Assembly: GCF_045037415.1 (NCBI RefSeq)
Contig: NZ_CP173438.1
DNA: 64,000 nt
Source of the DNA: Escherichia coli
Lineage (GTDB): Bacteria > Pseudomonadota > Gammaproteobacteria > Enterobacterales > Enterobacteriaceae
Direction: 5' to 3' (one strand)
Shown piece after piece: positions 12,001 through 15,000 of this stretch. How positions within the stretch are numbered: the stretch's first letter is position 1; each line of letters opens with the position of its first letter. The position numbers are program-made.

Positions 12001-15000
12001 CTCTGCACCATACTGTAGCTTCCATTCGCGGACCCGCCGTTGCATTGTTCTTCGAAGGCTGTTGGGGTACTGGCCGGGATATTTATCCTGTAGCATCTCC
12101 AGCAGAGTTGTTGGTGTCAGAGCCGGCCTCTCTTTCAACAGAGGAACAAGCATGCTGTCCCACACAGCTTCCAGAGGATCTTTGCGTGTGCGCCAGTGCC
12201 GAACACTGTTTTTTGCCCACTCTCCTTTTTCGATCCGACGACCAGAACGGACTGAGATACCAGCCTTCATGGCCGAGATATGCTGAGTTATACCTTTCTT
12301 ACGCTGAGTCATATAGTAACTGACCTGAGAAGTATTGAGCGTCACGCCATTTCCTGTTGGATCATGTAAATGACACTCAGGTTACAAAACCGGCCAGAAT
12401 AATCGGCGCCAGGCGGACTGAGTTATTGTCGTCTCATACACTCAGTTCAGGGTAAAGCGTGCTATGAAGATGAGATGTTCAGCATCAGATACTTTAAGAA
12501 GGGCTCCGCGCACATCACGTTCAGGAAACCAGAGCTGGTTGACAGATTGAATGATATTATTGCGAAATACTATCCGGAAACCTTATCGCCCGTTTAACCC
12601 AAAGCACAGACTCAGTACATACACAAAAACATTCTGATAAATCTGGCGTCATTCAGAGCAAAAAAACATGTTTTCCAGATTATTTGTAAAAAAACATACT
12701 CCAGCTATGGTGGCAGGTAGTCTGATATTTCTGTTCATTATTCTGCTGACATTTTTCTGGAAAAAAGCAGAGCTGGTGAATGACAGCCAGATCAGAGTTA
12801 ATTTCGCACTTGGCTATATAGAAAACATTCTCAATCAGAACAACAGCATCAGCCAGGAAGCAGAACATTTGCTTCTGAATAACTGTAACGCAGATACTCA
12901 GCATGAATTAAGCAATCTGCTGCTGAAACGCCCACAACTTCGTGCACTGAGCCTGGCAAGACAAGAGGCTGTATTTTGTAGCACCCACCCCGGTTTACCT
13001 GTCGGTCCAGTTGCTGAAAAGGAACAGTGGCGGCACGATATGCTGATTCGTTTTCCTGAAGATACAGGTACTCTGCCCTGGATCCTGTTAAGAACACCTT
13101 ACAAAAACGGCACGGTCATTACCGCCACGGATTATTATTTTATTCAGGACATCATCTCTGTGGTTCATGCGGTTCCTGCAATACGATTCCGTTTGGGAAA
13201 CACGGTCCTGTCAGCCAGCGGAAAAAATGTCACTCTGCTCCCGGACGACAGCGGTATACAAAAAGAAAGTCATTCAAAAAAATATCCGTTCTCCCTGATT
13301 TATATCATCCCGGTGAAAATGCAACTTACCTACGCCTGGAAACAGGCCTGGTATATGATCCCTGTTGCCATCTTCGGTGGAATACTCACAGCCTTTCTGC
13401 TGTCCCGCCGACGTCCATCTTCCCCGCTCGATATGCTGAAAAATGCACTTGCTCACGGAGAGTTCAGACCTTATTTTCAGCCCATCATTTCCGCTAAAAA
13501 TCACCAGCTAACCGGCTGCGAAGTACTGATTCGCTGGCATCACCCCGTCAGCGGAATTATCCCACCAGATCAGTTTATCCCGCTGGCAGAGTCCACCGGA
13601 TTAATTGCCCCGATAACGCAACAGTTGATGTCTCAGGTCGAACATAGCCTTAATTCTGTTGCGCATTTTTTACCGAATCAATTTCATATTGGGATCAATA
13701 TTTCACCAGCGCATTTTCTGTCTCCGGGACTGGAGGATAGCTGTATGAAGTTTCTATCCACCTTCCCGAAAGGGAAAGTGAAACTGGTTCTGGAACTGAC
13801 AGAACGAAACCAGCTATCCGTCACCGCAGAATCAAAAGCGTTATTTGCGAAATTACATCAACAGGGAGTATTGTTTGCACTGGATGATTTTGGTACTGGC
13901 TATGCAACCCACAGCTACCTGCAGTCGTTTCCTGTCGATTACATCAAACTCGATAAAGGGTTTGTACAAATGGTCGGCGTGGATGAAATCTCCGGGCATA
14001 TAGTAGAAAATGTTATTGAGCTGGCTCGCCGGTTAGGTATTGATATCATTGCCGAAGTCATTGAAACCGAATCACAGGAATTGTTCATGACAGAGAAAGG
14101 AAGCTGCTATCTGCAGGGATACCGCTATGCACCTCCACTACCCGCTGAACAGTTTATTGCTGAGTGGGTATACAACAGCGGAAACGGCAAAAACCAGAGA
14201 TAACACATACTGAAATGGACCAGGATATGCGTCCCCCCCTTTCACCTCATCTCCCAACTCCCGGGTTTGATTCCTTTTTCACAGCAAAAGGGACTGAGGG
14301 TACAAAAGAGGGTACATTTTTAACCAAACCAAACAAAATTAACCAATCTCAACATGATAGAAGCAATCTTCGATTCCGAGTCCGGCACCAAATTCATATA
14401 AACGGACCTCCACGGAGGTCCATTTTTCGTTTCAGGACGCCACGATTTAAGCGTCCTGCCGCCAAATCAATTCTACCGAACTCAACCAGATTCTCCCCAC
14501 ATCACCAGCAATTTGCGGGCATATCCCAATTCGGGAAAATTTGTTTCTGAGCTATAGCGCTGACTGACGTGAAATGTCGTGCGGCCCCGTGATGCTGTTG
14601 AACGTCAAATGACGTCATCAGGAGCGTAATGCATCCATAAAGCACAACATCGGGCAGAACGCCAACTGATGAGATTTTCTGAATGAGAACAAAGAGAAAT
14701 GTATCAGTCCGTTTGCTCATGCAAAGACTAACAATCCATTAAAATAGTAAGCGCTCCGGACAATTTTTCATGGATTATTTTCTGAACATTTTTCTTTGGC
14801 AAAGATGATGAATTTTGATGGTAAGGAAAATTACTTCTGGTTCTCAGTAAAATCCTTTCGTAATACTATGTAATCAAGAAGTTTATGGCGAGTAAAAATA
14901 ACGTCTTGCATTCACCAATAATATGTAAATAAACCCATCTATAGATGGAAAAAATAGGTTATGGCAATTATCATTGCATCATTCCCTTTTCGAATGAGTT

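Follow-up and report, generated by a model that had tools for sequence, protein, structure and literature searches.

A predicted CSS-EAL c-di-GMP phosphodiesterase gene at the end of a tRNA-Phe island in Escherichia coli, with a glycine-to-valine change in its EGVE motif

Does the gene that closes the pheU island on an ST131-type Escherichia coli chromosome encode one more redox-responsive c-di-GMP phosphodiesterase, and can the allele found there be expected to be fully active? CSS-EAL enzymes tie the periplasmic redox state to the c-di-GMP level and thereby to matrix production and motility. The gene lies in a window of 64,000 nucleotides (contig NZ_CP173438.1), by which we mean the whole stretch of DNA that was analysed. 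A preliminary description had read it as an accessory EAL phosphodiesterase with two transmembrane segments and a periplasmic Cys-containing domain, had placed it last in the island, and had suggested that it could tune biofilm formation and motility of the carriers; such an effect is speculation.

A predicted inner-membrane phosphodiesterase

The gene occupies positions 12668-14203 on the plus strand as one intact open reading frame of 511 amino acids, with ATG at 12668, a stop codon at 14201-14203 and no internal stop, and the identical sequence is annotated in RefSeq as WP_000492897.1. The domain search proposed in the preliminary description found both expected domains above the Pfam cut-offs, the CSS-motif domain (PF12792) at residues 39-225 with 34.2 bits (gathering cut-off 23) and the EAL domain (PF00563) at residues 256-490 with 206 bits (cut-off 31.3). 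Kyte-Doolittle hydropathy gave exactly two hydrophobic segments, TM1 at residues ~13-31 (12704-12760) and TM2 at residues ~227-245 (13346-13402). Both carry basic residues on their cytoplasmic sides (R4, K8 and K9 in the N-terminus before TM1, RRRP following TM2), and the AlphaFold2 model of the protein (mean pLDDT 90.4) shows long helices across them, at residues 2-59 and 230-247. The segment between them (residues ~32-226, 12761-13345) is assigned to the periplasmic CSS-motif domain, in which the motif reads C-S-T. Its sole cysteines, C73 (codon 12884-12886) and C104 (12977-12979), align with the conserved pair of PdeB, PdeC, PdeD, PdeG as well as PdeN; each is conserved in at least 90% of 111 CSS-EAL homologues. 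The cytoplasmic EAL domain is encoded at 13433-14137. The architecture that had been described beforehand is thus supported by Pfam, hydropathy, alignment and model alike. The protein is predicted to be an inner-membrane c-di-GMP phosphodiesterase of the PdeC-type CSS class, a reading that, together with the mechanism outlined below, we consider probable.

In common with the five CSS proteins of K-12, the protein has TM1, the periplasmic CSS domain, TM2 and the EAL domain in this order, a conserved pair of cysteines in the periplasmic part and a complete EAL catalytic set. The cysteines are 31 residues apart, as in PdeC (C75/C106). In contrast, overall identity to these proteins is only 27-33%, falling to ~22% in the CSS part for the best match, PdeG. 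Further differences are the CST instead of CSS motif, the location in an island-borne accessory instead of a core gene, an EAL domain of the PdeL branch and EVIE in place of EGVE.

Among the EAL domains of K-12, the closest is that of PdeL (YahA) with 58% identity, compared with 33-43% for the CSS-EAL paralogues. PdeL, which in E. coli K-12 acts both as phosphodiesterase and as transcription factor, is built from a LuxR-type helix-turn-helix and an EAL domain (PDB 4kie, 4lj3, 4lyk and 7pk5). Entries 4kie and 4lj3 match the EAL domain at E ~1e-95, and the C-terminal half of the model can be laid over the crystal structure of the YahA EAL domain with TM 0.97 and rmsd 1.0-1.5 A (Foldseek). Both proteins have the segment ISGHIV(E/D)N and the same loop 6, DDFGTGYAT, as found in active PdeL, whereas PdeL has AEGVET and the window protein AEVIET. 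Unlike PdeL, the window protein carries a membrane-anchored CSS sensor instead of a LuxR DNA-binding domain: the Pfam scan of the 511 residues found no helix-turn-helix family, and only residues 260-505 align to PdeL.

For PdeC and PdeB it was reported that a DsbA/DsbB-dependent disulfide lowers the activity and that the reduced form is processed by DegP/DegQ (Herbst et al., 2018, PMC5897775), in line with the redox regulation of PdeC cited in the preliminary description. In the predicted arrangement of the window protein the N-terminus is inside, TM1 leads to the periplasmic sensor domain with C73/C104, and TM2 to the cytoplasmic EAL domain. By analogy with PdeC and PdeB, a C73-C104 disulfide made by DsbA/DsbB would keep its activity low. 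Once reduced, the protein would dimerise by way of TM2, become active and be open to processing by DegP/DegQ. It would then convert c-di-GMP to pGpG and so weaken signals by which matrix and biofilm are favoured at the expense of motility.

The gene as last passenger of tRNA-Phe islands

The position of the gene at the very end of the island is borne out by the alignment with K-12. Its stop codon lies 166 bp before attR (14369-14390, plus strand), a direct repeat of the tRNA-Phe 3' end that delimits the pheU island on its right side; this 22-nt copy, TTCGATTCCGAGTCCGGCACCA, lacks one G. Homology to the pheU-cadC interval of K-12, where a yjdQ remnant and cadC come directly after pheU, starts at 14369 within attR and continues to cadC (15007-16545, plus strand; seen as open reading frame, in the annotation and in the K-12 alignment), which is the first core gene past the island. 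The similarity of other strains' pheV islands stops at the same base as this junction. No open reading frame of at least 60 amino acids lies wholly between the stop codon and attR. A mechanically called frame of 128 amino acids (14164-14550) overlaps the end of the gene and extends beyond attR. The first terminator-like site 3' of the gene on its strand is a stem-loop with T-run at 14404-14431 (plus strand), the terminator that follows pheU in K-12. pheU itself, the left end of the island, is absent from the window and from 20 kb further upstream in a matching genome.

On the other side, a 70-nt gap separates the gene from the 3' remnant of a DUF4942 gene (12436-12597, plus strand; annotated in the matching ST131 genome). 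This usual immediate neighbour, intact in loci L001, L010 and L017, is interrupted by ISEc10 of the IS21 family (10030-12431, minus strand, with istB at 10094-10849 and istA at 10846-12345, from open reading frames and annotation), whose break points were set by blastn against the uninterrupted island of an avian-pathogenic (APEC) strain. In the lineage of the window, ISEc10 thereby separates the gene from the upstream island genes. These form a right-end module at 6368-10045 (plus strand), in which Pfam recognises antirestriction, RadC/JAB and DUF987 proteins, the CbeA antitoxin and CbtA toxin, DUF5983, DUF957 and the 5' part of DUF4942. The module precedes the gene in every chromosomal locus read (annotations of L001, L002, L010, L011 and L017), the order CbeA/CbtA-DUF5983-DUF957-DUF4942 and then the CSS-EAL gene recurring at the ends of pheU or pheV islands. 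Integrative islands at tRNA-Phe (pheU/pheV) thus carry the gene as a passenger of their backbone, always as the last one before attR, and it moves between lineages together with the right-end module. A role in anti-phage defence was also considered and rejected, as PADLOC gave no match for the 511-aa protein, its DUF4942 neighbour or three other island reading frames.

A presence/absence survey, likewise proposed at the outset, covered 5426 complete E. coli genomes and found the gene in 461 of them (8.5%), so that it is accessory and core-genome status is excluded. Porcine ETEC plasmids carry it as well, and at least 1000 contigs encode the exact 511-aa protein. Comparison of alleles gave dN/dS values of 0.17-0.26 for the whole gene and of 0.11-0.13 for the EAL part of two chromosomal alleles, which indicates purifying selection. 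This selection is not universal, since two of the closest G-type alleles sampled, those of KK19-02 and E200086, are pseudogenes with an internal stop or frameshift.

The EGVE glycine and competing readings

The loss of essential EAL catalytic residues, which the preliminary description had named as evidence against its reading, was not found. In the alignment the set is complete, with Q271, E285, R289, N344, E376, E379, D406, D407, K427, E463, E466 and Q483, and the metal, substrate and catalytic residues are invariant across the family; the EALxR motif reads E285-V-L-I-R289. The canonical E-G-V/I-E motif, in contrast, reads E-V-I-E, with both glutamates kept. Codon 464 (GTC, 14057-14059, plus strand) specifies valine in place of glycine, giving AEVIET. 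Among 253 other homologues this position is glycine in 252 and cysteine in one, it is glycine in six of six K-12 EAL proteins compared, and the codon is GGC in ETEC H10407, strain 120899, the plasmid copy and KK19-02. Valine is confined to the present allele group, to which 298 of the 461 carriers belong; these include ST131 as well as avian strains of the O1/O2:K1 type. V464 directly follows the catalytic base E463 and, in the AlphaFold2 model, sits in the loop just past the strand that ends at A462. As it replaces a near-invariant glycine beside E463, the activity may be strongly reduced or lost. A literature search found no experimental work on the 511-aa protein, c-di-GMP hydrolysis included; given G464V, the enzymatic competence of the V464 allele is unproven and full activity should not be assumed.

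The gene has been catalogued before and is ordinary in kind, being present in RefSeq and, under the name PdeU1 (UniProt Q4FBC2), among proteins of UPEC isolates that Cimdins et al. (2017, PMC5635171) predicted to be "potentially active". The motif string of PdeU1_Q4FBC2 and its spacings (QP-12-EVLIR-17-AE-34-IN-31-ELTE-26-DDFGTGYAT-12-KLDKGF-30-EVIE-16-QG) are identical to ours; there is no detectable difference in these, so it is most probably the same protein. In the parts of that study consulted, neither the CSS domain of PdeU1 nor its place at the island end nor the G-to-V change is remarked on, and no test of the protein was found. The additions made here are the PdeL/YahA-like subtype of the EAL domain and the G464V change in the EGVE motif.

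What G464V means for the enzyme can be read in several ways. We think that it would most likely leave c-di-GMP binding with an altered, probably reduced, turnover. It is possible, though we hold it to be the less likely case, that the V464 allele has little or no catalytic activity left and that its product does no more than bind c-di-GMP at the membrane or act there as a trigger protein, or that selection in ExPEC lineages favoured the inactivation as such, as pathoadaptive attenuation. Such a reading is favoured by the near invariance of G464 next to E463 and by the precedent of ZMO1055, in which A526V, an alanine-to-valine change outside the signature motifs that lies ten residues upstream of the base in EGVE, reduces the apparent EAL activity (PMC12900916). 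The occurrence of the allele points the same way: the exact 57-mer of the V allele occurs in 298 complete genomes, that of the matching G allele in 59, and the V allele is 100% identical between the ST131 pheU island and the pheV island of an O2:K1 avian strain. However, all residues known for metal or substrate binding or catalysis are kept, Cimdins et al. (PMC5635171) rate the EVIE protein as potentially active, and that the allele is so frequent may simply mirror the heavy sequencing of ST131 and related clones. Distinctly more doubtful is a bolder version, in which G464V is non-neutral, a single transversion beside the catalytic base having attenuated or re-purposed the phosphodiesterase before the allele spread with the right-end module into ST131 (pheU) and O1/O2:K1 avian-pathogenic strains (pheV, one locus read). 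If true, G464V would be a naturally selected "dimmer" of c-di-GMP turnover, comparable to ZMO1055 A526V.

Two further explanations concern the gene as a whole. That it is a decaying, poorly expressed island-end passenger with no current role in this strain would agree with ISEc10 lying 236 nt upstream and splitting the neighbouring gene, with a simple scan that found no sigma-70-like promoter in the 370 nt upstream, with the broken alleles of KK19-02 and E200086, and with the ~27 of 465 matching records that cover less than 80%. Yet hundreds of genomes have the reading frame intact and in identical form, dN/dS between alleles is well below 1, and the IS-bearing arrangement is common to 155 genomes, the gene being intact in the copies read (the window and NZ_CP015085.1), so that we regard mere decay as improbable. 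Hardly any probability remains for the gene being a core paralogue or allele of pdeB, pdeC, pdeD, pdeG or pdeN, or of one of the described extra genes pdeT/vmpA, ycgG2, pdeX and pdeY. Although the domain architecture is that of the five K-12 proteins, the low identity to them, a score below every NCBIfam equivalog cut-off and the presence in just 8.5% of genomes argue against it. ycgG2 (NMEC/CFT073) was rejected because it is a 5'-truncated allele of core ycgG. PdeX of strain 536 is listed in the PMC5635171 supplement with EAL only (residues 8-251) as opposed to TM-CSS-TM-EAL, and PdeY is SfaY, described as a stand-alone phosphodiesterase of the sfa cluster. PdeT/VmpA (Z1528 of EHEC O157:H7 EDL933) is likewise a CSS-domain phosphodiesterase that pathogenic E. 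coli have beyond the K-12 set, but its insertion site is downstream of ycdT, beside the pga operon, and not in a tRNA-Phe island; here the comparison and the rejection are by locus only. PdeW, described as plasmid-located, might be the variant seen on porcine ETEC plasmids.

Significance and further observations

As a membrane-bound phosphodiesterase of the CSS class, the tRNA-Phe-island copy would be one more input into the c-di-GMP network in ~8% of sequenced E. coli, with ST131, O1/O2:K1 avian strains, ETEC H10407 and porcine ETEC plasmids among the carriers. Comparisons of c-di-GMP networks in ExPEC should include the gene, and because of G464V its common ExPEC allele should not be presumed active. 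With the V and G alleles, nature already provides a test of what the glycine in EGVE does. The practical weight is modest, and knowledge of the CSS-EAL family is unchanged.

No clear Shine-Dalgarno sequence precedes the ATG at 12668, and no regulatory RNA or riboswitch reached its gathering score around the gene. The best RNA match, Gut-1, scored 30.6 bits (threshold 50) antisense within the reading frame and is taken as chance. An E. coli relative with 50% identity (P0041) adjoins AraC and MacAB-like genes, which is an unrelated locus.

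Architecture and descent of the EAL protein

The gene at 12668-14203 (+) is a single uninterrupted open reading frame of 511 codons. In its product, Pfam detected a CSS-motif domain (residues 39-225; 34 bits against a cut-off of 23) followed by an EAL domain (residues 256-490), the latter with 206 bits. Hydropathy analysis gave exactly two membrane-spanning segments, at residues of about 13-31 and 227-245, and the loop between them contains only the cysteines C73 and C104. An AlphaFold2 model calculated with 111 homologues as input reached a mean pLDDT of 90.4, and its C-terminal half matches EAL crystal structures of YahA with a TM score of 0.97 and an rmsd of 1.0-1.5 Å. 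Pfam, hydropathy and model agree on two transmembrane segments, a periplasmic Cys-containing domain and an EAL domain, as claimed in the preliminary description. Its interpretation of the gene is right, and our analysis establishes this for architecture, cysteines, catalytic set, fold, island position and accessory distribution.

The protein was aligned with the five CSS-EAL proteins of K-12 and PdeL. C73 and C104 align with the conserved cysteine pair of the K-12 CSS-EAL proteins, their spacing of 31 residues is shared with PdeC, and each cysteine is at least 90% conserved among the 111 homologues; the motif reads CST, whereas PdeG has CTS. PdeG is the best K-12 match of the periplasmic domain, yet with only about 22% identity. 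For the EAL domain, identity is 58% with PdeL/YahA, compared to 33-43% with the K-12 CSS paralogues. Hence, the protein joins a distant CSS sensor to a PdeL-type catalytic domain. CSS-EAL proteins of a similar kind with a PdeL-like EAL domain also occur in Citrobacter, Edwardsiella and Salmonella. The best NCBIfam score (266 bits against an equivalog cut-off of 461) is far under every equivalog cut-off, which rules out orthology to any named phosphodiesterase.

RefSeq lists the protein as WP_000492897.1, annotated as 'EAL domain-containing protein', and its exact sequence is present on at least 1000 contigs. Cimdins et al. (2017; PMC5635171) described three 'novel' EAL proteins from UPEC isolates. 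One of them, PdeU1 (UniProt Q4FBC2), agrees exactly with our protein in its string of motifs and spacings, including EVIE; it is termed 'potentially active' there without a test. As other identities, ycgG2, PdeY/SfaY and PdeX could be ruled out, and PdeT/VmpA was ruled out by position. A survey of pheU/pheV insertions in STEC has an 'EAL domain-containing protein' among its entries, uncommented, and our literature search found no functional study of the protein. The gene has been catalogued before, and its uncharacterised product belongs to a well-understood family. Beyond the literature covered are the PdeL-type origin of the EAL domain and the change G464V in the allele dominating ExPEC genomes, neither of which is very surprising.

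Catalytic residues and the change G464V

Loss of essential EAL residues had been named as evidence against a phosphodiesterase, but the alignment shows every signature residue kept, i.e. Q271, N344, E376/E379, D406/D407, K427, E463, E466 and Q483. The EALxR motif reads E285-V-L-I-R289, and loop 6 with D406/D407 (DDFGTGYAT) is identical to that of PdeL. However, the catalytic-base motif of the window allele is E-V-I-E instead of the usual E-G-V/I-E. Glycine occupies position 464 in all six K-12 proteins compared and in every other allele read (ETEC H10407, 120899, the plasmid copy and KK19-02). Of 253 further homologues, with identities as low as about 30%, 252 have glycine and one has cysteine; valine is confined to the allele group of the window. 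The change is a single transversion (GGC to GTC) at position 14058. The model places residue 464 beside E463 at the barrel mouth, in the loop that immediately follows the strand ending at A462. Counted by exact 57-mers centred on codon 464, the V464 allele occurs in 298 complete genomes, compared to 59 for the G464 sequence, which is otherwise identical. A published precedent makes an effect of G464V on activity plausible but does not prove it: apparent EAL activity is lowered by a non-signature A-to-V substitution located ten residues upstream of the EGVE base (PMC12900916).

Island end, mobility and distribution

The source chromosome is ST131-type (O25b:H4), and many ST131-type genomes match window 9000-16600 with 100% identity. 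The stop codon of the EAL gene is followed after 166 nt by the repeat TTCGATTCCGAGTCCGGCACCA (14369-14390), which equals the tRNA-Phe 3' end minus one G of the GGG run (TCCGG-CACCA vs TCCGGGCACCA in K-12 pheU). Homology to the K-12 pheU-cadC region resumes at 14369 and continues through the pheU terminator and the yjdQ integrase remnant to cadC at 15007. The repeat is attR of a pheU-integrated island with the EAL gene as its last gene, the position proposed before; pheU itself and the left end are located beyond the window limits. The 'integrase' fragment at 14588-14747 was ruled out as an island gene, because it is the yjdQ pseudogene located between pheU and cadC in K-12.

Upstream, the right-end module encodes an antirestriction protein, a RadC/JAB protein, DUF987, the CbeA antitoxin and CbtA toxin (a YeeU/YeeV-type type IV pair, 7695-8556), DUF5983, DUF957 and DUF4942, which form a conserved island right-end backbone. 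ISEc10 (IS21 family, about 10030-12431, minus; istB 10094-10849, minus, and istA 10846-12345, minus) splits the DUF4942 gene into a 5' part (9335-10045) and a 162-nt 3' remnant (12436-12597) ending 70 nt before the EAL-gene start. This exact arrangement, found in 155 complete genomes, is apparently a marker of the ST131 lineage. Module plus EAL gene also form the right end of the pheU island of ETEC H10407, and they end the pheV islands of an O2:K1 avian-pathogenic strain (next to kps) and of strain 120899 (next to yghD-gsp); in both latter strains the island similarity stops at the identical base, window 14390. The V allele is 100% identical between the ST131 pheU and the O2:K1 pheV island, and the entire right-end module has evidently moved between lineages.

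A core-genome paralogue, the other objection raised beforehand, was ruled out: the gene occurs in 461 of 5426 complete E. coli genomes (436 of them with at least 80% coverage). Relatives with at least 74% identity are nearly all from Escherichia, plus a few Salmonella records, followed by relatives at 50% and then at less than 45%. Hence, the gene is accessory and horizontally mobile. A diverged copy (86-87% amino-acid identity) is carried by 16 porcine ETEC plasmids in PLSDB, mostly conjugative, e.g. NC_017640.1 (UMNK88); on NZ_CP182410.1 (comparison locus L012, 3638-5173) it is flanked by IS fragments, and in this one plasmid read the STb heat-stable enterotoxin gene is about 1.6 kb away. 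The dN/dS between alleles of 0.17-0.26 (0.11-0.13 in the EAL half of two chromosomal alleles) points to past purifying selection on the family. Two of the closest G464 alleles sampled are pseudogenes, one at pheV/kps and the other at pheU/cadC: KK19-02 has Q318* (locus L017, 3001-4536), and E200086 a 1-bp deletion (locus L018, 3001-4535; annotated pseudogene CDS 3039-4535).

Putative regulation and further features of the window

By analogy to the CSS-family mechanism (Herbst et al., 2018; PMC5897775), C73 and C104 would be joined in a disulfide that depends on DsbA/DsbB and holds the enzyme at low activity. The reduced protein would dimerise via TM2, be highly active and undergo trimming by DegP/DegQ; c-di-GMP would be hydrolysed by the EAL domain in the cytoplasm. 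Redox gating, activity and any influence on biofilm or motility are thus inferred from the family. Expression is uncertain, because the 370 nt upstream contain no sigma-70-like promoter, the start lacks a clear Shine-Dalgarno sequence and ISEc10 now lies between the gene and its upstream neighbours. In or around the gene, none of the Rfam families reached threshold; a weak sub-threshold match to Gut-1 RNA antisense within the EAL frame (13676-13786, minus; 30.6 bits, gathering score 50) is most likely due to chance. PADLOC defence models matched neither the protein nor its neighbours.

Elsewhere, the leftmost 1-2503 did not align to the otherwise matching ST131 genome NZ_CP015085.1, and a 317-aa frame therein (1524-2477, minus) had no Pfam or PADLOC match. 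According to the annotation of the matching ST131 genome, a block at about 25072-39949 between the ghoST/GNAT genes and yjdI, which we presume to be absent from K-12, contains on the minus strand the genes for a 1309-aa autotransporter (25072-29001), an AraC-family regulator (30157-30987) and an S6-family (SPATE) serine protease autotransporter (31885-35697), and on the plus strand chaperone-usher fimbrial genes (36687-39949). Finally, at about 46859-48861 melA is directly followed by yjdF, as read from a 99.997% identical ST131 genome; melB, which presumably separates the two in K-12, seems to be missing.
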